The notes under the pieces are model-generated. The model ran no database searches, was not told the DNA's origin, and worked only from the letters and a program-made list of their open reading frames with translations. From contig CAVPIW010000010.1 in assembly GCA_963705105.1 (NCBI GenBank), positions 1 through 64,000 of the forward strand: a stretch of DNA of 64,000 bases, read 5' to 3'. Positions 23,971 through 57,890 of the stretch are shown in pieces. The stretch comes from an uncultured Nitrospiraceae bacterium (GTDB taxonomy: Bacteria > Nitrospirota > Thermodesulfovibrionia > Thermodesulfovibrionales > Dissulfurispiraceae). The position numbers and the translations under genes are program-made. Every line of letters begins with the position of its first letter. Positions within the stretch are counted from its first letter, which is position 1.

Positions 23971-25266
23971 ATGAGAATACTCAGAGAGAGAGACAAGATC
24001 GCGTCATTTCTCCGTGTGCTCAGGAAGAGGGCCGCCGGTGTCAGTCCGGAGACGGAGCAGCGTGTCAGGGATATCCTTGCTGCCGTAAAGAAAAAGGGAG
24101 ACGCTGCCGTCGAGGGGTACACGCGGACCTTTGACGGCCATGAGCTTCCCCTGATGGTCACGGCCGCCGAGATCAGAAAGTACGCGAAAAAGACGGACGG
24201 GAGGATCGTGAAGGCCCTCACGCTGTCGGCAAAGAGGATCGAGGCCTTTCACACGAGGCAAAGGGAATCGTCCTGGACATTTCAGAAGAACGGCATCCTC
24301 CTCGGCCAGATCATAGGGCCCATCGAAAGGGCGGGCGTCTATGTGCCAGGAGGCAAGGCGTCCTATCCGTCGACGGTCCTGATGAACGTCATCCCCGCCC
24401 AGGTGGCCGGCGTCAGGGAAATCGCCCTCTGCGTGCCTACGCCGCGGGGAGAGATCAACCCGGCTGTCATGTGCGCCATCGATCTCCTCGGCGTCAAAGA
24501 GGTGTATCGCATAGGCGGCGCCCAGGCGATCGGCGCCATGGCTTACGGAACGAAGACGATCAGGAAGGTGGACAAGATCGTCGGGCCGGGGAACATCTAT
24601 GTGGCCCTTGCGAAGAAGATGGTCTTCGGAGACGTCGACATCGACATGATCGCGGGCCCGAGCGAGATCCTGATCATCGCCGACGCGTCGGCCGACGCTT
24701 CCTTTATTGCGGCCGACCTGCTGAGCCAGGCCGAACACGACGAGCTTGCCTCCAGCGTCCTCGTCACGGATTCAGAGGAGCTCGCGCTCCGTGTCTCCGA
24801 CGAGCTGAAGAGGCAGCTCAAGGTGCTGAGGAGGAAGGATATCGCCGTCAAGTCCCTGAGGAAATTCGGCGCCATCATCAGGACCGGCTCGATCGCTGAA
24901 GCTGCCGAACTGGCCAATGAAATCGCTCCCGAACACCTGGAGATCATGACGAAGAAGCCCGAGCGGGACGTGAAGCTGATACGCAATGCCGGCGCCGCCT
25001 TCCTCGGTCCCTGGACGGCGGAGCCTCTCGGCGACTACTCGGCGGGACCGAACCACACGCTCCCGACAGGGGGGACGGCACGGTTCTCATCGCCCCTGGG
25101 CGTATACGATTTCATCAAGAGGATGAGTCTCCTGCAATTTGACGAGGAGGGATTCCGGCATCTCGCTGATGTCGTCGAAATGCTCGCCGACGAGGAGGGT
25201 CTCGAAGCGCACGCCAATACCATCAGGATCCGCAAGGCGGCACTGAGCAGGAAGAAGAAAGGTTAG
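23971..25266 (+). CDS. hisD: Histidinol dehydrogenase
   Basis: GVYVPGGKASYPSTVLM, KIVGPGNIYV, DMIAGPSE, DLLSQAEHD, APEHLE, GDYSAGPNHTLPT. Confidence 0.97.
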   Translation: MRILRERDKIASFLRVLRKRAAGVSPETEQRVRDILAAVKKKGDAAVEGYTRTFDGHELPLMVTAAEIRKYAKKTDGRIVKALTLSAKRIEAFHTRQRESSWTFQKNGILLGQIIGPIERAGVYVPGGKASYPSTVLMNVIPAQVAGVREIALCVPTPRGEINPAVMCAIDLLGVKEVYRIGGAQAIGAMAYGTKTIRKVDKIVGPGNIYVALAKKMVFGDVDIDMIAGPSEILIIADASADASFIAADLLSQAEHDELASSVLVTDSEELALRVSDELKRQLKVLRRKDIAVKSLRKFGAIIRTGSIAEAAELANEIAPEHLEIMTKKPERDVKLIRNAGAAFLGPWTAEPLGDYSAGPNHTLPTGGTARFSSPLGVYDFIKRMSLLQFDEEGFRHLADVVEMLADEEGLEAHANTIRIRKAALSRKKKG

Positions 25267-25268
25267 CC

Positions 25269-25385
25269 CTACTTCTCTTTTCTGACGCCCTTGAAAGGCT
25301 TGTTATCAGACTTCTGGTCCGTGAAGCGGCTGGTGGCGGCATCACGCTTGGTCCATCTGTCGTTCTGCGGATTATGGGTCTGACT
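25269..25385 (-). pseudogene. 3' fragment of a small conserved basic hypothetical protein
   Basis: SQTHNPQNDRWTKRDAATSRFTDQKSDNKPFKGVRKEK resembles a small-protein family I recall. The upstream part of the ORF does not look like a native N-terminus. Confidence 0.45.
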
Positions 25386-25550
25386 GGAAGAACAGTCCCA
25401 GATAGGCTCCCATGACCACGACGATGACGAAACAGGCCGGCATTGCGGCAAATACCTACCTCTCCTCCGATGGTTTCTCGATTTTGACGTCTATACCTGC
25501 CCTTTCACTCACCGGGAATCTCTACGCGCTCGCGTTAAAGTGGACACGCA

Positions 25551-27585
25551 TCACTGCGGAATGATTTTCGTATCACACTTTGACGTCGCAGGAAAGGGCC
25601 AGGGGAGAATGATGGCATTGGCGAATGTGTCCAATCCCCTGAATGTCCATCCCCGGGGAATCGACCCCTCCTGATTCCAGACGGCCGCTTCCTCATAGGT
25701 CATCACAGGCATCGGTCTCATCCACAGGTTGTCATCAGGATCGGTGTGCTCGATCTTGGACGGATAGAGACTGACGATGAAATAGGACTCGGTCAGCAGA
25801 TAGACACGCTTGTACTCTCCCGCCTTGAGCAGAGGAATGTGATACTGGTAGTCTGTCGGTGAAACATGCCTTCGGCGTCCAGTAGAAGGAAAACCTCACA
25901 TAGATGTCTTTGAGATCGTGGGAGAAGACGTCGGCAGTCATGGTGATGGGCCTGCCGAGAGGGTCCGTCTGCTGCAGAATCGCATCGCTTCCCGCGATAT
26001 ACCAGGTACTGTTCAGGCAGAACCGGTCCATGCTGTTATACACATCAAAAGGGGTGGGCTCTCCGATGTTACTGAATCCCACGACAACCGCCTCTGACTC
26101 TGCGCCGAGTCGTCCCTTGTAGACGATCTGGATGGACAGATCGACGGCTTCCAGGGGGATGGGATCGCTGCTCAGATCGAATTCGAGGGTGACGAACTCC
26201 GTGCGGGGAATTGACCGGATACCCTGGGCCTCCGGATAGACCTTGTATTCGAACTCTTCGGTCACGGGAACGGATGAGGTGCGGACACGGAAGGGATATT
26301 CAAGTGCCCGTTTGAATTTCACGACCAGTTCAATACTGCCGTCCCGCATCTCCTCGCCGGAGGAGGTGATGCTCAGTGCGCTGAGTGTCAGTTTCTGGAA
26401 CCCTTTGCCCGGATCGTCGTCGTAGTGGATGAAGGAGAAGACCCCTTTGTCGGTGGGGCCGATGTAGATGTTGCCCCGGAAGAAGTAGTCCAGGAGGTCG
26501 GCAGAGTACCCGACGGCACGGGGAATGAGATGGGAGGCGTAATCTCTGTAGATGTCGTCATACAGCACCAGGGGAAGAAATTCATAGCCCTTGTCGACCT
26601 GCTCGCCGGAGGAAAGTTTTCTCTTCACATCATAAGAGAAATATCCCATTGCAGCAAGGCGATATCCGTTCTTTTTATCCCTGATATAGATGACATTGTC
26701 TTTGATACGATCCTCCGCATCCGTCATTTCAGGATTCGCCCAATTGATGTCTCCATAGGTTGTGTCTTCGACTGCCGGATGGGGATAGCCTCTGAAGATC
26801 GTGTCTTCGCTGAAGAAATTGGCGTTGGTGAATTCGGTGAGGCCGACAGTAGGGCTCAGAGTGGCGAGAGGATTAAAGCCATTATATGTATTTGTGTCGA
26901 ATAGGGGCGTAATCGGGTACATGCCCGGTCGATTTGTTTCAGAAAACAGGACAGATCTGTCGAATGAAACGGGTGAAGTGAAATGGCGCAGGAACTCGGG
27001 ATGCTTTTTCAGCCAATATTCATAGTCGAAGCCGGAGGGATGGCCGTCGTTTCTCGCGTGAGAGGGGACCGAGGCGTCCTGCACGAGATGCATGAGCTGC
27101 CCGAGGGCACGGAAGGTCTTCGCCCATTGCTCTTCTTTTTCCCTGTTACTCTTTCTCGTGAGGGCCTGATAGAAATAACTTCTCGCATCATGCCACGAAT
27201 ACCAGCCCCCCTGTGATTGAGTCGTTCTTGGCAATTGGCCCCATATCACCGATGAATTCCATAATCCAAGATAACCGACATTGGAGAGGGGATCGTGGAA
27301 ATGGTTGAATGACCGCGAATAGGGCATGGCGAAGGGCGGCCTGTCTTCATAAAGTCCGCCGGCCTGAACCCAACTCCATACTTTCTTCCCCATCAAGTCG
27401 GTATCAACACCGTCCGTCATGCCGATTCTGGTCTTCAACATTGAATGAAGGGCGCTACCTGTAAAACCCAATGCAATATCCTTATTCAAAACTTTATGAG
27501 AGTCCGTTTCCAAGGCGAGACAGCAAGGAGAAGAGTAAATCATAATGAGAATAAGCAACACTATTACAGATCTAATATTTTGCAT
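25551..27585 (-). CDS. Large secreted protein with N-terminal zinc phospholipase C/P1 nuclease-like motif; one-base frameshift near 25869
   Basis: Signal peptide; NHFHDP and GQLMHLVQDASVPSHARNDGH motifs. After ccg aag g cat the +1 frame continues (HVSPTDYQYHIPLLKAGEYKRVYLL...) to TGA at 25551-25553. Confidence 0.65.
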
Positions 27586-43522: not shown

Positions 43523-44401
43523 TTACCCGGTCAGGATCTCCAGGATCTCCCGGTACCGTGCGGCGGTCTTGCCGATGATCTCTTCGGGCAGGACCGGCCC
43601 CGGATATGTCTTGTCCCAGTCGAGGGTAAGGAGGTAGTCCCGGACGATCTGTTTGTCGTAGCTGTCCTGTCCTTTTCCGGGCTGATAGTCCCGTATGGAC
43701 CAGAAGCGGGACGAATCGGGGGTGAGCAGTTCGTCGATAAGCGTGAGACGCCCGTCGACGAGGCCGAACTCCATCTTCGTGTCGGCGATGATGATGCCCT
43801 TCTTCTCGGCGATCTCCCGGGCCTTCCCGTAGACGCTCAGGCTTGCCGACCTCAACTGCTCAGCCAGGTCAGGTCCGATTATTCCTGCCGTCTCGTCAAA
43901 GGAGATGTTGATGTCATGGCCCTCTTCGGCTTTTGTACTGGGGGTGAAAATGGGGGTGTCGAGGCGCGACGACTCGACGAGGCCTTCGGGAAGCCTGATG
44001 CCGCAGACCATGCCGGTCTTCTTGTAGTCCTGCCAGCCTGAACCGGAAAGGTACCCCCGGACGATGCACTCGACGGGTATGGTCTCCGCCTTTTTCACCA
44101 GCATGCTCCTGCCGGAAAGGTCGTCCCTGTATTTGTGGAGGATTGCCGGGTAGTCGTCCACGTCCGTGGCGACGATGTGATTGCCGATGATCCCCTCCAC
44201 CTGCCTGAACCAGAAGAGGGAAATCCTCGTCAGCACCTCTCCCTTGCCCGGGATGCCGTTGGGAAGGACGACGTCAAAGGCGGACACCCTGTCTGAGGCT
44301 ATGATGAGCAGATAATCGCCGATCTCGTAAATATCCCGCACTTTGCCCCGGCGCAGAAAACGAACGTCGTCAAGGTGACTCTCCATCAAGACATCTGCCA
44401 T
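43523..44401 (-). CDS. purC: SAICAR synthetase
   Basis: RGKVRDIY, SDRVSAFD, ECIVRGYLSGS, FTPSTKA, ADTKMEFG, DELLTPDSSRFW. Confidence 0.96.
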   Translation of the reverse strand: MADVLMESHLDDVRFLRRGKVRDIYEIGDYLLIIASDRVSAFDVVLPNGIPGKGEVLTRISLFWFRQVEGIIGNHIVATDVDDYPAILHKYRDDLSGRSMLVKKAETIPVECIVRGYLSGSGWQDYKKTGMVCGIRLPEGLVESSRLDTPIFTPSTKAEEGHDINISFDETAGIIGPDLAEQLRSASLSVYGKAREIAEKKGIIIADTKMEFGLVDGRLTLIDELLTPDSSRFWSIRDYQPGKGQDSYDKQIVRDYLLTLDWDKTYPGPVLPEEIIGKTAARYREILEILTG

Positions 44402-47031
44402 CGTCTCCTCCTGATCCATTTTTCGGTTTCCACTGCAAAGAATACCACAGATGACATCGCAAGTGTAAAGACCAGTTCATGAAAACTCAGCGGCCTCGTT
44501 TTGAAGACGGGATGGAGAAAGGGGACATAAATCGTCGCCATTTGCAGGACGAGCGTAAGGGCAAATGCGCCCAGGAGGGGCCTGTTCGATGACAGGCCCT
44601 GGCTGAAGAGGGACCGGCTCTCGGACCGTATGGCGAGCACGTGGCCCATCTGGCTGAGACAGAGGACGGTGAAGACCATGGTCTGCCAGTTTGCAGACCC
44701 CGTCTTCAGGGACCAGGCCTGGGTGATCAGGGAGACCCCTCCCATGAGCAGCCCGACCCAGATGATGTGCGCGCCGAGGCCATGGGCAAAGATGCTCTCG
44801 GAAGGATGGCGCGGAGGCCTTTCCATGATCCCCTTTTCCGCGGGCTCGGCGGCCAGGGCAAGCCCTGGCAGGCCGTCCGTCACGAGATTGATCCAGAGGA
44901 TGTGCACCGGCAGGAGGGGAATCGGGAGGCCCAGGAACGGTGCGAGGAAGATCGTCCAGATCTCTCCCGAATTGCTCGTCATCGTGTATTTGATGAATTT
45001 GCGGATGTTGTCGAACACCCTGCGTCCCTCTTTCACGGCCCTCACGATCGTCGCAAAGTTGTCGTCCATCAGGATCATGTGGGACGCCTCTTTTGAGACG
45101 TCGGTCCCCGTGATCCCCATGGCGATGCCGATGTCGGCACGTCTGAGAGCCGGGGCGTCGTTGACGCCGTCACCGGTCATGGCGACGAACTGTCCCCTGT
45201 CCTGGAGCGCCTTGATGATCTTCAGTTTCTGCTCGGGCGCCATGCGGGCATAGACACTGATGCCTTCAACCTTTTCGTCGAATTCGGCTATCGGCATCCC
45301 CTCGAGTTCCTGCCCCGTCATCACCGCCGCGGAATCGTCCTCAAGGATGCCCAACCGTCGGGCGATCGCCTCAGCCGTTGCCGGGTGATCACCTGTAATC
45401 ATGACAGGTCTGATGCCGGCGGATTTGCAAAGCGCTACGCTTCCGGCCGTCTCCTCCCGGGGGGGATCGATGAGGCCGACGAGGCCGATGAAGGTGAGAT
45501 CACTCTCGGCTGAACCGGGAGTGAGTGCATCGGGAAGCCGGTCCCATCTCTTCATGGCGACGGCAAGGACCCGAAGGCCTTCCGACGACATCCTGTCGCT
45601 TGCGCTGATGATTTGCGAGGCATCGGCTGCCTTGATTCCGCCAGTCGTCAACATGTCTGTCGATGCGCTGATGAGGGTCTCGACGGCGCCTTTCGTGAAG
45701 GAGATGACAGCGCCGTCATTACCGGCGTGGACCGTTGTCATGGCCTTTCTCTGCGCATCGAAGGGTATCTCGCCAACGCGGCGAAAAGCGGTTTCCAGGT
45801 CTTCCTTCCCGTATCCCATGTGCCGGGCGAACCGGTACAGGGCAATCTCCGTCGGGTCACCCGTCACCTCGCCGTCTCCGGAGACCCTGACGTCATTGCA
45901 GAGCGCGAGGGCGAGGAGCAGGCGGTCGAGGGTTCCCGTAAGTCCGGGGACTTCATTTGCCGCGCGGGGCTGAAGCTCCCCGATGCCGGCGACCCTGCCG
46001 TCGATCCACACCTTTTCGACGGTCATCCTGTTAAGGGTCAGCGTGCCTGTCTTGTCGGAGCAGATGTAGGTGACGGAGCCGAGGGTCTCGACGGCGGGGA
46101 GTTTCCGGATGATCGCATTCTGGGATACCATTTTCCTGGCCGCAAGGGCGAGTGAGATGGTCACGACGGCGGGCAAGGCTTCGGGGATGGCAGCGACGGC
46201 GAGGGAGATGGCCGTGAGGAGCATCAGCACGGGTTCCTGTCCCCTCATGACGCCGATGAGAAATATGACGGCGCAGAGGGCGAAGACGGCGAGGGCGAGC
46301 CTCCGGCCGAAGTGGGCGAGCCTCTTCTGGAGAGGGGTCCTTACCTCCTCCTCCTGGATCATGGCGGCGATCTTCCCGAGTTCCGTCTCCATGCCTGTGG
46401 CGGTGACGATACCCGAGCCGCGGCCGTTGACGACGACGGTGCCTTTGTAGGCCAGGTTCTTCCGGTCGCCAAGTGGGATGGATCCGCCGGGAATGGACGA
46501 GGTGTGTTTCTCCACCGCCACCGATTCTCCCGTCAGGGCCGATTCGTCGATCCTGAGGACGAAGGCCTCGGTGATCCTCATATCGGCGGGAACGATCCGC
46601 CCCGACTCCAGCATGACCACATCTCCGGGAACGATTTCAGCGGAGTGTATGCTGAAGGGTCTGCCGTCCCTGACGGTTTCTGCGGACGGCGTCGACATTT
46701 TTTTCAGCGCCTCCATCGCCTTTTCTGCCCTGTATTCCTGGACGAACCCGATGACGGCGTTGAGTATCACTATGACGAGGATCGCGATGGTGTCGATGTG
46801 CTCTCCGATGATGCCTGATATGATCGACGCTGCGATGAGGACGAGGATCATGAAGTCCCGGAATTGACCGAGGAACATCATGAAGTGGGAGCGGCGCTTC
46901 TTTTCCCTGAGCTCGTTGGGGCCGGCGGTCAGGAGTCTCCGGCGGGCCTCGTCGGCCGTCAGACCCAGGGGAGAAGAATGCAGCTCTTCGAAGACTTCAG
47001 AGAGCTCCTTTTCGTGCCAGTAGGTCTTCAA
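44386..47031 (-). CDS. P-type (P2, Ca2+/Mn2+-type) cation-transporting ATPase
   Basis: LTGES, AAIPEALP, CSDKTGTLT, KGA, DPPR, TGD, MTGDGVNDAPAL, WINLVTDGLP. Confidence 0.95.
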   Translation of the reverse strand: MKTYWHEKELSEVFEELHSSPLGLTADEARRRLLTAGPNELREKKRRSHFMMFLGQFRDFMILVLIAASIISGIIGEHIDTIAILVIVILNAVIGFVQEYRAEKAMEALKKMSTPSAETVRDGRPFSIHSAEIVPGDVVMLESGRIVPADMRITEAFVLRIDESALTGESVAVEKHTSSIPGGSIPLGDRKNLAYKGTVVVNGRGSGIVTATGMETELGKIAAMIQEEEVRTPLQKRLAHFGRRLALAVFALCAVIFLIGVMRGQEPVLMLLTAISLAVAAIPEALPAVVTISLALAARKMVSQNAIIRKLPAVETLGSVTYICSDKTGTLTLNRMTVEKVWIDGRVAGIGELQPRAANEVPGLTGTLDRLLLALALCNDVRVSGDGEVTGDPTEIALYRFARHMGYGKEDLETAFRRVGEIPFDAQRKAMTTVHAGNDGAVISFTKGAVETLISASTDMLTTGGIKAADASQIISASDRMSSEGLRVLAVAMKRWDRLPDALTPGSAESDLTFIGLVGLIDPPREETAGSVALCKSAGIRPVMITGDHPATAEAIARRLGILEDDSAAVMTGQELEGMPIAEFDEKVEGISVYARMAPEQKLKIIKALQDRGQFVAMTGDGVNDAPALRRADIGIAMGITGTDVSKEASHMILMDDNFATIVRAVKEGRRVFDNIRKFIKYTMTSNSGEIWTIFLAPFLGLPIPLLPVHILWINLVTDGLPGLALAAEPAEKGIMERPPRHPSESIFAHGLGAHIIWVGLLMGGVSLITQAWSLKTGSANWQTMVFTVLCLSQMGHVLAIRSESRSLFSQGLSSNRPLLGAFALTLVLQMATIYVPFLHPVFKTRPLSFHELVFTLAMSSVVFFAVETEKWIRRRRWQMS

Positions 47032-49196: not shown

Positions 49197-49676
49197 TCAC
49201 GACTTCGGGGCAGGGCGGATGCCGATGGCTTCGAGCTCTTTGATCACCATCGCGACAAGGGTATCGATCCCTGACTGTATCGTCCCGGACAGATCGAGAC
49301 CCGTGTCGATCCGCTCCGGCTCTATCCCGATGAGCACGATGTGCCGGGGCATCCGGTCGGTGATCTGCGCGACGGCCAGGAGGTCCGACAGACCCAGTTG
49401 ATGGGGCGATATCTTGCTCGACAGGAAGACCGGTACGTCCTTGCCCTCGAGCCTGACGATCGTCCCCGGCGGGTTCCCGGACTTCACGACGTCGACGATG
49501 ATGACGTTCTCTTTGTCCTCAATGTACGGGAGAAGCTCCAGCCCCATGGTGCCGCCGTCGATCACCTCGACGTCGTCGGGCATATGGTATGCCGCGAGCA
49601 GTTTCTCTATGACACGGACACCGGCGCCCTCGTCCATGAGGAGGATATTGCCGATGCCGAGAATGGTGACAGCCAT
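49197..49676 (-). CDS. hybD: Hydrogenase maturation protease (HyaD/HybD family)
   Basis: ILGIGNILLMDEGAGV, IDGGTMG, SPHQLGL. Confidence 0.92.
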   Translation of the reverse strand: MAVTILGIGNILLMDEGAGVRVIEKLLAAYHMPDDVEVIDGGTMGLELLPYIEDKENVIIVDVVKSGNPPGTIVRLEGKDVPVFLSSKISPHQLGLSDLLAVAQITDRMPRHIVLIGIEPERIDTGLDLSGTIQSGIDTLVAMVIKELEAIGIRPAPKS

Positions 49677-49693
49677 CAATTTTATCCTCCCTG

Positions 49694-49820: not shown

Positions 49821-51521
49821 CTAAAAGGCCTTGACCTTCACGATCTCCCGGCGCTTAGTGTCGACCATGTGAATGGCGCAGGCGAGGCAGGGGTCGAAGG
49901 AATGGATGGTCCTGAGGACTTCGAGGGGGCGCTCCGGATCGGCAACGGGGTTGCCGACCAGTGACGCCTCATAGGGCAGCATCTCGTCCTTGTCGCTCCT
50001 CGGCCCGGCGTTCCACGTCGAAGGGACGACGCACTGATAGTTCTTGATCTTGCCGTTGTTGATGACGATCCAGTGGGAGAGGACACCCCTCGGCGCCTCA
50101 TGGAAGCCTACACCCCTCTGCTCGCCCGTCGGGAAATTGGGACGGTTGTATGTCGTCGTGTCTCCCTTTCCGACGTTGTCGATGAGCAGCTGCCACTGCT
50201 TCCCGAGGCTCTCATACATCACGGCGCACCGGACGGCACGGGCGGCGATCCTGCCGATCGTCGAATGGAGGGCGGCGACAGGGATCTTCGCCTTGGCGAG
50301 GCTGCCCACCGTCGCCAGGACATGGTCGACGTACTTTTTCGTCGGTCCGTGGCCCGCGGCATACATGCACAGGACGTTCGCCAGCGGTCCTACCTGGGCG
50401 GGCTTGTCATAGAAGGTAGGCGCCTTCACCCATGAGTATCTCCCGTTGTCCTGGAAGTCAGTATACTTCGGAACAGTCTCCTCTTCCCAGGGGTGGCGGT
50501 TCCAGTTCCCGTCGTACCAGGCGTGCTTGATCGCTTCCTTGACGCCTTTCTTGAAGTAGTCGTCCTGAAAACTCTTGATCGGCTTGAATGTGCCGACATC
50601 GCCGTTCTCGATGAATCCTCCCGGCAGGTCGAAGACGGTCCCCTTCGTGTCGAGGGGAAGGTCGGGGACGCAGAGGTAGTTCGTCACGCCGGCGCCGTAT
50701 TTCGTCCAGTCGGCATACATGGCCCCGACGGCGCAGACGTCCACGAGGAGGACGTCCTTGACGAAATCGCCGATCTGGTCGATGTGCTCCTTGATTTTGA
50801 AGAGTCGTTCCACGGTGAGCGTTGACGGGCTGTCCAGATTGATGGGGTTTGCCACGCCACCGACGGCGAAGTTCTGGAGCTGCGGGGTTTTACCGCCGAG
50901 GATGCCGGGGATCATGTTGATCTTTCTCTGGAACTCCAGCGCCTGGAGGTAGTGGGCCGTCGCGAGGAGGTTCACCTCGGGCGGCAGTTTCATGGCCGGG
51001 TGGCCCCAGTATCCGTTGTCGTATATGCCGAGCTGACCGGAGCCGACAAAGGCCTTCAGCCGGTCCTGTGTCGCCTTCATCACCTTGTAGTTGTTCAACG
51101 GCCACGGAGACAGGCTCTCGCCGAGCTGGGCCGCCTTTTTCGGGTCCGCCTTCAGGGCCGAGACGATATCGACCCAATCAAGGGCGCAGAGATGATAGAA
51201 GTGGACGATATGGTCGAACACGGCATGGGACGTGATGATCATGTTGCGGATGTACTGCGCATTCAGGGGAATTTCCATGTTGAGCGCATTCTCTACCGAC
51301 CTCACCGAGGCCAGCGCATGGACGGATGTTCAAACGCCGCAGATGCGCTGGGCAAACACCCAGGCGTCGCGCGGGTCCCTACCCTGCAGGATCACCTCGA
51401 TGCCTCTCCACATCTGTCCCGATGACCAGGCGTTGGTGACTTTGCCCCCGTCGATTTCACAGTCTATACGGAGATGGCCCTCTATTCTCGTGATCGGATC
51501 AATGGTGATTCTTTTACCCAT
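49821..51521 (-). CDS. hybC: Hydrogenase-2-type [NiFe] large subunit, 566 aa, with in-frame UGA at codon 64 (putative selenocysteine)
   Basis: ORFs 51330..51521 and 49821..51305 are the same frame, joined by TGA plus 8 sense codons. [42 protein letters not shown]. Confidence 0.9.
51295..51315 (-). promoter_or_regulatory. Putative bacterial SECIS element
   Basis: GCUGGCCUC-GGU-GAGGUCGGU: 9-bp stem including G-U pairs, starting 15 nt after the UGA, with a G-initiated apical loop 24-26 nt downstream. Confidence 0.7.
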
Positions 51522-51536
51522 ATATTCCTCCTATAT

Positions 51537-52673
51537 TTATGCGTGCCTGAGATCAGGCAGCACAGGCACTTTCTTGACGATTATGAGGTATCCCATAATC
51601 TCGATCGAGATTATCCCAAGGGTGATCATAATCTCGCCGAATGACGGGAAGTACAGCCACTCCGTTCCGGGGTTGAACCCGACCAGGTAGGCATTGAACC
51701 GGTAGATCGCTCCTGCCAGGAGCATGAGCGCCGATGAGATGAAGAGCGACTGCGGCTTTGCCCTGCCGGACGGGGCGAAGAGCATGAGCATGGGGATGAT
51801 GTAGAGGATGTTCTCGAGGAGGAACATATTCCCCTTGAGATCGCCCTTGAAGGCGAGGCCGAGCTGTCCCCTCACGAGAAGGTCCCCGAAACGGATCGCG
51901 AGATAGACGGCGATCAGCCAGGGGATGATGCCGGCGATTTTTCTGAGGATCGGTGTCTCAAAGGGCCGCTTCAATCCCACCGAGGAGATGACCGATTCCA
52001 GGACAACAGTGGAATACCCCATGGTGACGACGGAGATGATGAACAGGAGCGGGAGAAATCCCGTGTGCCAGAGCGGTGAGAGCTTGCTCCCGGCGATCAG
52101 CAGGACCGACCCCAGCGAAGACTGGTGCATCGTCGGCAGCAGGATCCCGAGGGCGATGAATACGAAGATGAACTTGTTGAGTGTCTTCCGCAGGTTGTCC
52201 GCTTTGGTCTGCTCGAGGTAGGCAGGGGCCATCTCGATCCAGAGGACGCCCGTATAGAGGGCGATGCAGAGCGCCACCTCCAGGAGGACGGAATTGACGT
52301 TGATATACTGCGGCAGAAAGACGTTGTACATCTGCCAGTAACGGCCGATGTCGACAAAGACCGAGACGGCCGCCATCGTGTATCCGAAGAGGCTCGTCAG
52401 CACGGCGGGCCTGATGAGGGGATGATATTCCCCCTTGTTGAGGACATAGACAAGGATCGCCATCGCATAGCCGCCGCACCCGAGGGCCGTTCCCACGACG
52501 ACGTCATAGGCGATCCAGATGCCCCAGGCATAGCCGTCGTTCATGTTCGTCACGGCGCCGATGCCGTAAATGAACCTCTTGGCGAGATAGTAGGCGGCGA
52601 CGAGAGCGAATACCATGAGGACCATAAAGGGTTTCGTCAGGATTTTACCACCGATCGGTTTGCTTTCCTCCAT
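51537..52673 (-). CDS. hybB: Hydrogenase-2 integral membrane subunit (NrfD/HybB family)
   Basis: GYAWGIWIAYDV, DIGRYWQ, LPTMHQSSLGS, PLWHT, YFPSFGEI. Confidence 0.92.
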   Translation of the reverse strand: MEESKPIGGKILTKPFMVLMVFALVAAYYLAKRFIYGIGAVTNMNDGYAWGIWIAYDVVVGTALGCGGYAMAILVYVLNKGEYHPLIRPAVLTSLFGYTMAAVSVFVDIGRYWQMYNVFLPQYINVNSVLLEVALCIALYTGVLWIEMAPAYLEQTKADNLRKTLNKFIFVFIALGILLPTMHQSSLGSVLLIAGSKLSPLWHTGFLPLLFIISVVTMGYSTVVLESVISSVGLKRPFETPILRKIAGIIPWLIAVYLAIRFGDLLVRGQLGLAFKGDLKGNMFLLENILYIIPMLMLFAPSGRAKPQSLFISSALMLLAGAIYRFNAYLVGFNPGTEWLYFPSFGEIMITLGIISIEIMGYLIIVKKVPVLPDLRHA

Positions 52674-52698: not shown

Positions 52699-53640
52699 CT
52701 ATTTGTGGTGATCGTCGTCGTGCTTCTTCGTGCTCCTGTATGCGGCGAAGAGGAGCCCGGAGAAGACGGCGACAGGGGCGATAAACCCCGTGTAAATGCC
52801 ATGCTGGATTTTCTCGGACAGGACGGCGTCCGATTTATCGGGAAGCATCGGCAGTCCGAGCTTGTCGAAGGGCACGCTCGCAAGCATGAGGTACTGGGTG
52901 CCGCCGCCCTCCTTCTCCCCGTAAATGTGTTTCTGATAGACAGGCACCTCTCTCCTGGACGTGAAGTTCGACTTGATGTGCTGGACAGGATAGTCGTACC
53001 TTTTGCCCGGCTCGAGGGTCAGGCGCTTCCGGGCCTCGGCCAGGAGGTCTTCAACCTTCCCGAAGATGGAGGCCCCGACGGGGCAGACTTCGCAGCAGGC
53101 GGAGAATTTGCCGTCCTTGAACCGGTGATCGCAGAGCTGACACTTCCTGATCTGAGGGAAAGGTTTGTCCCACTCGAATTTTGGGACGTTATAGGGACAG
53201 GCGATCTGACAGTACCGGCAGCCGATGCAGGCATCCTTGTTGTACGTGACAACGCCGTTCTCGGGGTTCTTTTTCAGGGCCGAGACGGGACAGGCCGAAA
53301 CGCAGGCCGGGTCGATGCAGTGCATGCAGTGCCTTTTGACGAAGGAATAGATCTCGCCTTCCTTGTGCAGTTTGATGATGTTCAGTGTCTTGCCCGAGAG
53401 ATCGATCGGGTCGTCATAGAGCTTTTCGACGCTCGTATGATCGGGCGGCATGTTGTTCTGCTGCTTGCACCCGGACACACAGGCCTTGCAGCCGACGCAG
53501 ATGGTCGCGTCATAGAGAATCCCGACGGCCTCCTTCGGCAGTGTCATTGCCTCTCTCGCGAAAGCGGGCTGCACACCCGAGGCCACGAGGAGACCGCCTC
53601 CGACAGCTCCCTTCAGAAAATCACGCCGATTGATACTCAT
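52699..53640 (-). CDS. hybA: Hydrogenase-2 ferredoxin subunit
   Basis: Tat motif NRRDFLK, multiple 4Fe-4S Cys motifs, GEKEGGGTQ, C-terminal anchor. Confidence 0.93.
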   Translation of the reverse strand: MSINRRDFLKGAVGGGLLVASGVQPAFAREAMTLPKEAVGILYDATICVGCKACVSGCKQQNNMPPDHTSVEKLYDDPIDLSGKTLNIIKLHKEGEIYSFVKRHCMHCIDPACVSACPVSALKKNPENGVVTYNKDACIGCRYCQIACPYNVPKFEWDKPFPQIRKCQLCDHRFKDGKFSACCEVCPVGASIFGKVEDLLAEARKRLTLEPGKRYDYPVQHIKSNFTSRREVPVYQKHIYGEKEGGGTQYLMLASVPFDKLGLPMLPDKSDAVLSEKIQHGIYTGFIAPVAVFSGLLFAAYRSTKKHDDDHHK

Positions 53641-53643
53641 GGT

Positions 53644-54783
53644 TTACTTCTCCTCGGCGCCGGACTTCCCGGAGCCGGCGCTTTCACCGGATTTGCCGAG
53701 ATTCTTCGCAAGCATGGCGCCTGCGCCGATGGCGGCGCCGCCGACGCCTGCCAGGATCGCTGCGGAACCTGCAGTCAGGCCTTCTCCCTGGCGCTCCCTG
53801 ACCCCAGGGTAGGTCGCGGGAGGAGTGAAGAACTGGACCCTTGAGGGCGAGTGAATCGGGATGTTGAAGCCTACTCCTTTCTCTGAACAGCCGAAGCAGG
53901 GATGACCGATGCCGACGGGCCAGCTTCCCGAGCCTGTGTCGCCGAAGAGGAGGGACGGGCAGTTGTTGTATGTTTCCGGTCCCTTGCATCCGAGCTTGTA
54001 GAGGCAGTATCCCTGACGGTGCCCCTCGTCGCCGAAGACCATGGCAAAACGCCCTGCGTCGAAATGGGGCCGCCGCTCGCAGTTTTCGTGGATCAGTCTT
54101 CCATAGGCGAACTTCGGCCTGCCCTTGTCGTCGAGGGCGGGGAGTTTCTTGAAAGTCACGAAATAGAGGACCGTCGAGAGGAAATTGTAAGGGTTCGGCG
54201 CGCAGCCCGGTATGTTCACGACCGTGTATCCCTTGAGCACTTCCGAGACGCTGCTCGCGCCCGTCGGGTTCGGCGATGCCGCAGGGATGCCTCCCCATGC
54301 GGCGCAGGAGCCGATGGCGATGATCGCGGCGGCATGAGGGGCGACCTCCTTGATGTGCTCGAGGGCGGTCTTGCCGGCGATCTTGCAGTAGATCCCCCCG
54401 TCCTTGACGGGAATGGCGCCATCGACGACGAGGACGAATTTCCCCTTGTTCGCCTTGATCGATTTCTCCCGGACCGCCTCCAGGTTGTGTCCCGAGGGCG
54501 TGCTGAGCGTTTCGTGGTATTCCAGGGAGATGAGATCGAGGATGAGATGCTCCAGTGTGGGATGGTGTGTCCTCAGGAGCGATTCCGTGCAGCCCGTGCA
54601 TTCCTGGAACGAGAGCCAGATGACAGGCGGGCGCTTCGGGCTCGTGGCGGCCTCCGCAATCCTGGAACCCATGCCAAGGGGCAACCCCATACAAGCGGCC
54701 ATGGCGGAACAGAACTTGAGGAAATCCCTCCGCGATACGTCTGTGAGCTTTCTTCCGCCCAGATACATACCTTTTCTTAGCAT
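53644..54783 (-). CDS. hybO: Hydrogenase-2 small subunit
   Basis: Tat motif SRRDFLK, ECTGCTES, GSCAAWGG, PGCAP, HENCER, CLYKLGCKGP, HPCFGC, C-terminal TM helix. Confidence 0.93.
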   Translation of the reverse strand: MLRKGMYLGGRKLTDVSRRDFLKFCSAMAACMGLPLGMGSRIAEAATSPKRPPVIWLSFQECTGCTESLLRTHHPTLEHLILDLISLEYHETLSTPSGHNLEAVREKSIKANKGKFVLVVDGAIPVKDGGIYCKIAGKTALEHIKEVAPHAAAIIAIGSCAAWGGIPAASPNPTGASSVSEVLKGYTVVNIPGCAPNPYNFLSTVLYFVTFKKLPALDDKGRPKFAYGRLIHENCERRPHFDAGRFAMVFGDEGHRQGYCLYKLGCKGPETYNNCPSLLFGDTGSGSWPVGIGHPCFGCSEKGVGFNIPIHSPSRVQFFTPPATYPGVRERQGEGLTAGSAAILAGVGGAAIGAGAMLAKNLGKSGESAGSGKSGAEEK

Positions 54784-55405: not shown

Positions 55406-57890
55406 CTACTTTTTAGTCATGGCTTCCCTGATGGCAGTGCTCAGTTCCTGTATCCTGTAAGGCTTCGATATGAAGCCGCAGAAACCGTAACTTTCGTGAG
55501 CCGAGAGCACCGGGTCATTCGAATAGCCGCTCGAAACGATCGCCCTGACGGCAGGGTCGATCTGCTTCAGAACGGCCAGGGCCTCCTTCCCTCCCATGCC
55601 TCCGGGGACGGTCAGGTCGGCGATGACGATATCAAAGGGTCTGCACGCATCAATGGCCTTTCTGTATGCATCGATCATTTCATTGCCGTCCTCGACCGCC
55701 TCGGCTCCGTACCCGAGGTGGTGCAGCATTTTGAGGCAGACCTCCCTGATGAAAGGCTCGTCATCCATGACGAGGACCCTTCCCCTTCCGGCCCGGAGCG
55801 ATTCCGGCGCCGGCCCCGGTTCGGTCGCCTTCCCTTCGGCCGCCGGGAGGTAGACAAAAAAAGTCGATCCTTTGCCGAGCTCGGAATCGACGGTCATGTA
55901 CCCGTCATGCCGTGTGACGATCGAGTAGGCAGTGGCAAGACCGAGACCGCTTCCGCGCTGCTTCGTCGTGAAATAGGGATCGAAAATCCTCGGGAGATGC
56001 TCCTCCGGTATCCCCAAGCCATGATCGGTGATCGCTATCCGGATGTGCCTGTCATGTTTCAGCGGCAGGTCCTGCACGTCTTCGGCCGTCACATTGTCAC
56101 AGCTCAACTCGATGACGCCTCCTTCGGGCATCGCCTGATCGGCGTTGATGAGCAGATTGTTGATGACCTGGCTGATCTGACTCTCGTCCACCTCGGCATG
56201 CCAGAGGTCTTCCGGTAAGCGGAGGCGGCACTTCGACCTCGATCCCCGCAATGCAAAGCCGACAGTGTCCCGGATGATCCCGAGAAGCGTTGTCGGCTTT
56301 CTGACGGGTGCACCGCCCTTCGAGAAGGTGAGCAGTTGGTGCGTGAGGTCACGGGCCCGTGCCACGGCCTTTTCCGCTTCCGCGAGCCTTTCCGATAGGG
56401 GTTCGTCATCGCCGGCGTAAAGCTTTGCAAGGGAGATGTTGCCGAGGATGGCCGTGAGGATGTTGTTGAAGTCGTGGGCGATGCCGCCGGCAAGGATGCC
56501 GACGGACTCAAGTTTCTGGGCCTTCAGGAGTTCAGCCTCCATGCTTCTCTTTTCCGTGACGTCCCGGAACACGAGCACGACACCCACGACACTGCCGTCA
56601 CTCATCCTGATCGGCGCGCCGCTGTCGGCGATGATCCGCTCCGTGCCGTCCCGGCTGACGAGAACGGTCTGATTGGCGAGCCCGACGATGCCCCCTCGTT
56701 CGATCACCCTTTCGACAGGGCTCTCGCATCTTTTCCGCGTCTTCTCATGAATGATCTGGAATACGTCCGAGAGGGGCCGCCCGAGTGCCTCCTGCTCGCT
56801 CCAGCCCGTCAGGGCTTCGGCAACCGTGTTCAGCAGCACGACTTTTCCCCCTGTATCTGTCGTAATGACGCCGTCGCCTATGGATCGCAGGGTCACAAGC
56901 AATCGCTCCTTTTCGGCGGCAAGCTCCTGCTCGCTGCTGCGCAGCAATGTCTGGGCCTTTCTCCGCTCCAGCGCTCCCACAAAGATATCACCGACCGTTC
57001 TCAGGAGAGCGACGTCATCGTCGTCCCATCGCTTCTCCGTCCTCACCGAGTCAAAGCCGAGGTACCCGACAAGGTCATGACCGAACGTCATTGGGACGAG
57101 CACAAGGGACAGGATGTCCTGGGCCGAGAGGATATCCCTTTCGGGACGGGCTTCTTCCGGAAGCTCCGCCACCCTCGGGATGTGAATCGTCTCAAAGGCC
57201 CGCAGTCTCTGAATGAGCCAGGGGAAGGGCTCCACAGGTAAGTTCTTAAGGTTGCCGATCTGGGGCCCGATGCCTTCGGCGCACCATTCATGCGTATTGT
57301 CCATGGTCGTCCCGTCCTGGGAGAAGAGAAAGACATAGGTGCGGTCGACGTCGGAAAACCGGCCGATCTTCTCCAGCGCCTCGTTGATTGTTTGGTCGAT
57401 GTCCTCCATAGGGGAACGCAGAAACCCTGTCGAAATGGAGGAAATAATCCGCTCCATCTCGACACGGTGCTGCAAGGGCGAGCTCGGCTTTCAGACGTTC
57501 GGTGAGGTCATGGGCCAGAACGAGCTCGGCCCGTCTTCCCCTGAAAGTGATGACATGGGAGGTGATTTGGACGAACAGGACGGTCCCGTCCTTTCTGATG
57601 TGCCGCCATATCCCTGCCTCGTCGAGACCTTCCGTTACCCGTGACACGTTGTCCAGGAGGGCGGGGACATCCTCGGGAGGCCTGATGTCCTTTATGGTCA
57701 TCGAGAGGAAGTCCTCTTTTGAATACCCATAGCGATGAACGGCGGCAGTGTTGACAGCAAGAAATGAGAGGGTCTCGAGGTCATAGATGAACATGGGATG
57801 GGGGTTGCTCTCGAAGAGGTCTTTGAATGCCTCCTCCGACGGGGACGGAGGCGGTGAGGGGGAGTCAGGGTCGTGCAGGTTCCCTTTCAT
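55406..57890 (-). CDS. Hybrid sensor kinase PAS-GAF-PAS-HisKA-HATPase-REC; one-base frameshift near 57476
   Basis: ATG 57890 overlaps the upstream stop (ATGA). The PAS frame ...KAELA joins LQHRVEMER after one extra base (gcc c ttg cag). GIAHDFNN, FDPYFTTK, GSGLGL and a REC domain follow. Confidence 0.85.

Follow-up and report, generated by a model that had tools for sequence, protein, structure and literature searches.

A UGA codon at a predicted nickel-iron bridging position of a Hyb-type hydrogenase from an uncultured Nitrospiraceae bacterium, very probably decoded as selenocysteine

Does a single stop codon that falls exactly on a metal-ligand cysteine of a hydrogenase mark a broken gene or a selenoprotein? 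The question is raised by hybC, the large-subunit gene of a hydrogenase-2 (Hyd-2, Hyb-type) operon on contig CAVPIW010000010.1 of an uncultured Nitrospiraceae bacterium (GCA_963705105.1). Positions 1-64,000 of the forward strand, here called the window, were analysed; coordinates are window positions unless another contig or a locus is named, the bacterium's own genome is labelled G000, and the genomes and loci of relatives carry G and L numbers. Judged by its sequence and those of its relatives, the hybC product is very probably a Hyb-type hydrogenase that contains selenocysteine (Sec) and has selenium as a bridge between Ni and Fe. Put in full, we consider it highly likely that hybC encodes the large subunit of a periplasmic, membrane-bound Hyd-2/Hyb-type (Group 1c-like) H2:quinone oxidoreductase in which UGA codon 64 is recoded to a bridging Sec. 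The case was computed from the integrity of the gene, the conservation of the TGA, the Sec machinery of the genome, a hairpin behind the codon together with its parallels in the same genome, and purifying selection in frame on both sides of the TGA.

The in-frame TGA of hybC

With TGA read as Sec (U), hybC (49821-51521, minus strand) encodes 566 residues followed by a stop, and the only non-standard step is U64 (TGA, 51330-51332), which lies in the motif RICGVU; there is no other lesion across the 566 codons. The Pfam family NiFeSe_Hases (PF00374) matches residues 39-551 over the whole length of its model (1-508 of 508, E 7e-214). The four metal ligands of HybC are C61 and U64 (UGA) in the N-terminal motif (L1) and C545 and C548 in the C-terminal motif (L2), and when U is counted as C these columns are invariant among 28 aligned relatives. 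A sequence-only reading of this DNA had described one continuous frame with the TGA as its only stop, on a catalytic Cys, together with a C-terminal DPCLAC that has both cysteines and an otherwise intact hyb operon. All of this was borne out, by the 566-residue reading, by the TGC codons at 49878-49895 and by Pfam/NCBIfam matches for all five genes. It had also expected annotation pipelines to split the gene, as translation table 11 indeed does, dividing it into an open reading frame (ORF) of 63 amino acids (51330-51521) and one of 494 (49821-51305).

The TGA is widely shared. Many homologues in 41 relatives (G000 included) carry in-frame TGAs, and the 30 loci read among them, our own included, comprise 9 of the CxxU type at L1, 13 UxxU and 8 CxxC; wherever the C-terminal motif lay inside the segment read it was DPCxxC, with L027 and L036 left out. 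For the bacterium's order a sample of 301 genomes was used, and Hyb orthologues were counted by hand among the listed matches that span codon 64 at 66% identity or more (n=40, own included). One TGA was found in 33 of these, two in 2, which proved to be UxxU, and none in 5, so that 35 of the 40 listed orthologues have a TGA. The position of the TGA was verified for the fetched loci, where it is always an L1 Cys codon. Homologues with a TGA at the same codon, which the sequence-only reading had proposed to look for, exist in number. Over all 116 sequences read there were 14 CxxU, 17 UxxU and 85 with Cys at the codon-64 column; neither UxxC nor a TGA at L2 was seen among these 116. Outside the order, 80 diverse loci (the matches listed, 80 of 598 relatives) gave 76 CxxC, three CxxU, from two Desulfobacterota metagenome-assembled genomes (MAGs) and one Bellilinea, and one UxxU, from a Methylomirabilia MAG. 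Most orthologues of the order fall outside these 80 of 598 relatives, and the counts are not to be read as frequencies outside the order.

The operon has the order and strand of hybOABCD, with the genes for the small subunit, HybA, HybB, the large subunit and the HybD protease all intact. The hybO product matches the NCBIfam hydrogenase 2 small subunit model (E 1.2e-158) and has a twin-arginine translocation (TAT) signal at residues 16-45. The hybA product reaches 435 bits on the NCBIfam HybA model NF008134 (cut-off 263), the hybB product 530 bits on NF008133 (cut-off 450) and the hybD product 162 bits on TIGR00140, hupD (cut-off 151.8). The mature chains of E. coli Hyd-2 in the PDB (6EHQ, 5XVC; 552 residues) end at the position aligned to the His551 region of HybC. 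The features, from 5' to 3' along the operon, are as follows (SECIS, selenocysteine insertion sequence).

53644-54783, minus strand: hybO, hydrogenase-2-type small subunit with twin-arginine signal (Pfam Oxidored_q6, NiFe_hyd_SSU_C)
52699-53640, minus strand: hybA, periplasmic 4Fe-4S ferredoxin-like electron-transfer subunit (Pfam Fer4_11, TAT_signal)
51537-52673, minus strand: hybB, NrfD-type integral membrane (quinone-side) subunit (Pfam NrfD)
51527-51532, minus strand: AGGAGG ribosome-binding site, 5 nt ahead of the hybC ATG (read in the sequence)
49821-51521, minus strand: hybC, [NiFe] hydrogenase large subunit with one UGA (Pfam, NCBIfam, 6EN9 alignment)
51339-51341, minus strand: TGC codon of Cys61, the first ligand in L1 and by homology a terminal one on Ni (assignment after PMC13582414)
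51330-51332, minus strand: UGA codon 64, proposed Sec, second L1 ligand, Ni-Fe bridging by homology
51295-51315, minus strand: SECIS-like hairpin, 9-bp stem GCUGGCCUC/GAGGUCGGU with the GGU apical loop at 51304-51306 (by folding)
49878-49895, minus strand: L2 motif DPCLAC (Cys545, Cys548), both ordinary Cys codons (TGC)
49824-49868, minus strand: C-terminal 15-residue extension after His551, presumably removed by HybD
49197-49679, minus strand: hybD, HyaD/HybD-family maturation endopeptidase (Pfam HycI, E 4e-35)

The gene immediately upstream of hybO, likewise on the minus strand (55406-57475), encodes a GAF-PAS hybrid histidine kinase that has a receiver domain, and downstream of the operon lies a gene for a P-type cation ATPase (44386-47031, minus). 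The window also holds 16S and 23S rRNA genes (3592-8202) separated by a spacer of only ~80 nt; ARAGORN found no tRNA over the whole window, and the spacer is without the usual tRNA-Ile and tRNA-Ala. Elsewhere in the genome there is a second Group 1 large-subunit gene (C16:8744-10354), 47% identical to hybC and without an in-frame stop.

Selenocysteine machinery and the hairpin behind codon 64

The machinery for Sec is present. A tRNA-Sec with the UCA anticodon scores 69.2 bits on the tRNA-Sec model and is also called by ARAGORN, selA and selB are present, and selD is itself a gene with one in-frame TGA (C11:79300-80208). The sequence-only reading had placed selA, selB, selC and selD outside the window, and all four were found elsewhere in the genome. 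An FdhA gene (C12:54131-57343), an Fdh-like gene (C5:161509-162264) and an FlpD/MvhD gene (C5:133504-133872) also have one in-frame TGA each. When the 60 nt after the TGA of each of these four other selenoprotein genes were folded, all hairpin loops began with G: GGACU for FdhA, GGUCU for the Fdh-like gene, GUC for SelD and, for FlpD/MvhD, GGU at nt 27-29, the same as in hybC. Judging from these genes, Sec is in wide use in this genome.

The hybC hairpin begins 14 nt past the UGA and its GGU loop occupies nt 27-29 if the U of the UGA is taken as nt 1, which is 24-26 nt past the codon; the folds reproduce both the 9-bp hairpin and the spacing given by the sequence-only reading. The consensus for bacterial SECIS elements has a G as the first or second nucleotide in the apical loop (PMC13582414), and a hairpin directly downstream with a GGU loop agrees with it. 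Among the sequences read, a hairpin whose stem has 4 bp or more and whose first two loop nucleotides include a G was predicted in 25/31 of the Sec type as against 18/85 of the Cys type, and the mean shuffle z of the downstream regions was -1.55 for the Sec type and -0.10 for the Cys type. Raw folding energy did not differ between the two types (p = 0.10), the Cys-type set being more GC-rich.

We infer Sec insertion, maturation and export to proceed as follows. SelB with Sec-tRNA(Sec) would bind the hairpin and insert Sec at UGA64, so that L1 would become C61-x-x-U64. The U64 selenolate would then form one of the two bridges from Ni to Fe, since by homology the second Cys of L1 has this role (PMC13582414), and the first Cys of L2 would stay sulfur. 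The Hyp system would insert the NiFe(CN)2CO centre, HybD would cut behind His551 and remove the 15 residues, and the large subunit would be exported by the TAT system together with HybO, which has the signal. Electrons from H2 would pass through HybA and HybB to quinone. Any benefit is a matter of speculation; selenium might tune the Ni-Fe electronics or the affinity for H2. Unready states of standard enzymes can have the bridging L1 Cys oxidised to a sulfenate. If such a sulfenate forms, easier reduction of the corresponding selenenate, and with it easier reversal of oxidation at the bridging chalcogen, could speculatively be the selective benefit.

Several observations weigh against decoding as Sec. 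SelA was found in 39 of the 41 relatives whatever their hydrogenase type, and its presence does not discriminate; the two of these relatives in which it was not found are G011 (CxxC, 89% complete) and G006. Taken by itself the fold of the hybC hairpin is within chance (z -1.36, with 17 of 200 shuffles folding as well or better), and it is therefore unable to carry the argument alone; the grounds for taking the TGA as more than chance lie in its conservation among relatives and in the independent assemblies described below. A scan of the window at the Rfam gathering thresholds matched only two rRNAs and no SECIS family, a result that is uninformative. The statistics comparing Sec and Cys types use related sequences and overstate significance. 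The register of the hybC hairpin differs from that of its sister clade, the loop lying 5 nt further 3', and no fetched orthologue has the hybC register; contigs of related strains are unchanged within 51295-51315, which is weak evidence. Some Cys-type Hyb genes fold a similar hairpin, for example hybC of Morganella morganii (L096), because the codons CAC-GCN (His-Ala) and GUG-CGN (Val-Arg) are complementary. The hairpin, for which the sequence-only reading had proposed a test of confinement to TGA-bearing copies, is enriched in them without being restricted to them. These conserved His-Ala...Val-Arg codons behind L1 may constitute a ready-made proto-SECIS that eases repeated switches from Cys to Sec.

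Other readings of codon 64

A further point against Sec comes from a tRNA. With UGA64 recoded at a SECIS element, the amino acid delivered might mainly or conditionally be Cys, brought by SelB on a selC*-type tRNA-Cys charged by CysRS, and the [NiFe] site would then have sulfur ligands only, as is ordinary, at any rate under selenium shortage. The genome does contain a tRNA-Sec-shaped tRNA-Cys with a GCA anticodon (G000:C10:176600-176691) that might deliver Cys in this way: the tRNA-Sec model gives it 55.9 bits, ARAGORN calls it tRNA-Cys (GCA), and it is 96 nt long, with U73, an acceptor stem of 8 bp and a variable arm that is long (L002:1497-1592, minus strand; same contig, outside the window). 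A selC* tRNA-Cys with exactly these features has been described, with Nitrospirae among the phyla (PMC7609411), both anticodon types recode UGA given a SECIS (PMC13582414, citing Vargas-Rodriguez 2018), selC*-type tRNAs being able to turn it into Cys, and these tRNAs are enriched in genomes with UXXU enzymes (PMC13582414). The distribution of this tRNA among the relatives fits the idea poorly, however. Three relatives with Sec-type hydrogenases, G008 (UxxU), G030 (CxxU) and G127 (Hyb-type UxxU), have tRNA-Sec and no selC*-like tRNA at E <= 1e-7, and two of the three are single-contig genomes; G020 is also without one, and the only other carrier among the relatives tested, G033, has a CxxC hydrogenase. 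The SelB-wing model has one match in the genome and turned up no second SelB, and the neighbours of the C10 tRNA are unrelated, an HGD-D family gene and a rhodanese gene rather than selB* or cysS*. It would also be hard to explain why TGA rather than TGC stands in 35 of the 40 listed orthologues if Cys were the product. We therefore regard decoding as Cys as improbable for hybC. In genomes that also have a selC*-type tRNA, the choice between Cys and Sec might even depend on conditions.

A second alternative is that hybC is a pseudogene or that the TGA is an error, in which case translation would stop at codon 64, or a truncated protein of 494 residues would start from the GTG at 51305, and there would be no functional large subunit. 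The table 11 reading gives exactly such 63- and 494-residue ORFs, and the sequence-only reading had warned of base errors in view of two apparent indels in the window. Four public runs with near-identical DNA were compared over 51100-51560. A 1304-nt contig from run X1 covers this region entirely with 4 differences, two contigs from run X2 cover codon 64, and in these assemblies from other studies no difference was found at 51330-51332. By frame arithmetic, all 16 of the variant positions listed in the region fall on the third base of a hybC codon; 6 of the 16 lie downstream of the TGA and 2 of these between it and the next possible start codon. Variants at third positions only, on both sides of the TGA, are the pattern expected of a translated frame under selection. 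The RNA runs X18-X20 contain only 7-10% of the sampled words. The TGA at codon 64 is neither a sequencing nor an assembly error. A protein from 51305 would moreover be without both L1 ligands, the operon and its maturation protease gene are intact, and the same TGA recurs in dozens of species at 70-75% identity with no other lesion, and so a defective gene seems very improbable. Reading of UGA by a near-cognate ordinary tRNA such as that for Trp, or a reassignment of UGA throughout the lineage, has nothing specific in its favour beyond the frequency of in-frame TGAs in the order and is scarcely credible, as these TGAs are confined to metal-ligand Cys codons in the sequences read, TGA doubles as the ordinary terminal stop of several orthologues, which argues that the genetic code is not reassigned, and Trp or Gly as a Ni ligand would destroy the site.

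Relatives and known hydrogenases

In a FastTree phylogeny of 111 sequences HybC groups with the Hyb enzymes of the order, next to proteobacterial (including enterobacterial) Hyb; this tree requires at least 8 changes between Sec and Cys and leaves the exact position of HybC unresolved. The named sequences nearest to HybC in the gene tree, among the matches listed, are MAGs labelled Desulfobulbus, Desulfobacterales and Desulfobulbia. A more careful tree of 27 sequences puts HybC as sister (86/85) to a clade of 11 rows (100/98), 10 members of which are of the Sec type, and the nearest Cys-type sequences (77% identical) in a separate clade (98/98). A single origin of Sec shared with the sister clade is likely on this tree, the support being moderate (86/85).

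A paralogue was also seen in the order, a second Group 1 hydrogenase ~50% identical to HybC in which both L1 cysteines are TGA (RIUGVU) and the C-terminal motif is DPCxxC (loci L030, L032, L034-L043, L046 and L135; for example L032:1495-3201, minus strand). Its operon in G008 comprises small subunit, large subunit, b-type cytochrome and protease. By hand count, 72 of the 108 matches listed from the order sample have two TGAs, and UxxU was confirmed in 14/14 of the two-TGA paralogue loci that were fetched. Only 9 nt separate the two UGAs, and the single hairpin behind them apparently serves both. Its stem shows compensatory pairs, CAGCUC/GAGCUG being replaced by CGCCUC/GAGGCG in L038 and by CUGCUC/GAGCAG in L113; the encoded amino acids change too, which argues for selection on the RNA structure. 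Two Hyb-type orthologues, L133 (G127) and L134 (G168), are UxxU as well, are 72-75% identical to HybC and have the hairpin as in their CxxU sisters; from this comparison it seems that a SECIS already in place gained a second Sec codon upstream. In G228 a CxxU Hyb-type gene (C22:21091-22785, L131) lies ~2 kb from a UxxU paralogue (25030-26724, L135) on one contig.

No description of a Group 1 UxxU enzyme was found in the literature searched, and the picture of an order in which most Hyb orthologues are CxxU, accompanied by a UxxU cytochrome-b-linked paralogue, seems new against that literature. We would put at about even chances that hybC is one case of a selenium chemistry, not described so far, that runs through the respiratory Group 1 hydrogenases of the whole lineage, in which a selenolate bridges or Ni has two selenium ligands. 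Table 11 splits large subunits of this kind, and surveys of called proteins would undercount or misclassify the hydrogenases of a whole order.

The closest characterised relative is E. coli hydrogenase-2 (HybOABC, Group 1c), whose operon has the same order, hybO-A-B-C-D. Residues 1-565 of HybC align to residues 1-566 of its large chain (6EN9, E 6.4e-232) and U64 falls on E. coli HybC Cys64, in agreement with the placing of the TGA on the second L1 Cys by the sequence-only reading. The two share RICGVx, DPCxAC and the C-terminal extension; the codon is TGC in E. coli hybC and UGA here. The PDB entries that match HybC best are without exception large chains of Hyd-2 (E 6.4e-232; Hyd-1 gives 1.4e-148), and the NCBIfam equivalog cut-offs for hydrogenase 2 are not reached by the large subunit (875 bits vs 969) or by the small subunit (528 vs 659). 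As judged by these scores, HybC is a divergent Hyd-2 orthologue rather than a strict equivalog.

To our knowledge the canonical [NiFeSe] hydrogenases, HysAB, are periplasmic heterodimers without HybA- or HybB-type subunits, and all structural and electrochemical knowledge of [NiFeSe] enzymes concerns Sec at one terminal Ni ligand. These Group 1a enzymes (Desulfovibrio vulgaris, Desulfomicrobium baculatum; 5JSH, 1CC1) are likewise periplasmic Group 1 hydrogenases in which a UGA-encoded Sec takes the place of one Ni-binding Cys out of four. Their Sec, however, opens the C-terminal motif and binds Ni as a terminal ligand (PMC13582414, PMC8020662), whereas HybC has Cys545 there and the proposed Sec is second in the N-terminal motif. 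HybC matches the canonical [NiFeSe] structures with E of about 1e-76 over part of its length and reaches 338.6 bits on the HysA model NF045518, below the cut-off of 780. The sequence-only reading had set the Sec site apart from the canonical position, with L2 here DPCLAC, and had taken the gene to represent a distinct natural type of selenohydrogenase. The difference in position stands, and the type is not undescribed, as Group 1 CXXU sequences are cited in PMC13582414.

According to that paper (Takano et al. 2026), Baltazar et al. 2011 reported an N-terminal CXXU, its Sec predicted to bridge Ni and Fe, in two sequences of Group 1 and one of Group 3. The Group 1 pair, known here through this citation, has apparently the same motif and belongs to the same group as HybC. 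HybC itself conforms to the N-terminal CXXU type, its proposed Sec standing at the second N-terminal Cys and the remaining three ligands being Cys. 'Purported examples' in which the bridging Cys is substituted are mentioned by Evans et al. 2021 (PMC8020662), a CxxU FrhA was reported by Zhang et al. 2007 (PMC1976440), and a 2026 review (PMC13188914), in the parts cited here, lists only UxxC for hydrogenase large subunits. In the literature searched we found no biochemical study of a natural N-terminal CxxU enzyme; hybC thus joins a kind that is known in silico and is biochemically uncharacterised in that literature. Among the Group 4 [NiFeSe] hydrogenases (PMC13582414) there are CXXU, UXXC and UXXU forms, of which UXXC and UXXU are called previously unrecognised. 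As in hybC, their Sec is N-terminal, that of CXXU is predicted to bridge, and the SECIS lies directly downstream with a G in its loop; their Cys-type relatives fold SECIS-like hairpins too, with the loop G in 100% of the Sec type and in about 26% of the others, a pattern that recurs in the Group 1 set read here. They differ from HybC in being cytoplasmic, energy-converting and multisubunit, where HybC would be a periplasmic uptake-type Group 1 enzyme, both assignments being made from sequence.

If HybC does carry selenium in the Ni-Fe bridge, it would be a natural enzyme in which ideas so far probed only with an engineered and poorly active variant of E. coli Hyd-1, C79U, could be tested, and its UxxU relatives, in which two ligands would be selenium, would carry such tests further. 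Chemically unlike the [NiFeSe] class that has been studied, bridging-selenium enzymes could also offer a new scaffold for studies of H2 catalysis. Hyd-1 C79U has Sec at the equivalent second Cys of L1, is likewise a Group 1 enzyme and is active (PMC8020662). With 13% of native activity it was the most active of four Sec variants; its apparent KM for H2 was below that of the native enzyme, and it showed no gain in O2 tolerance under prolonged exposure (PMC8020662). It is an artificial enzyme, made by way of a UAG codon and an EF-Tu route in an O2-tolerant Group 1d scaffold, whereas the UGA of hybC is natural.

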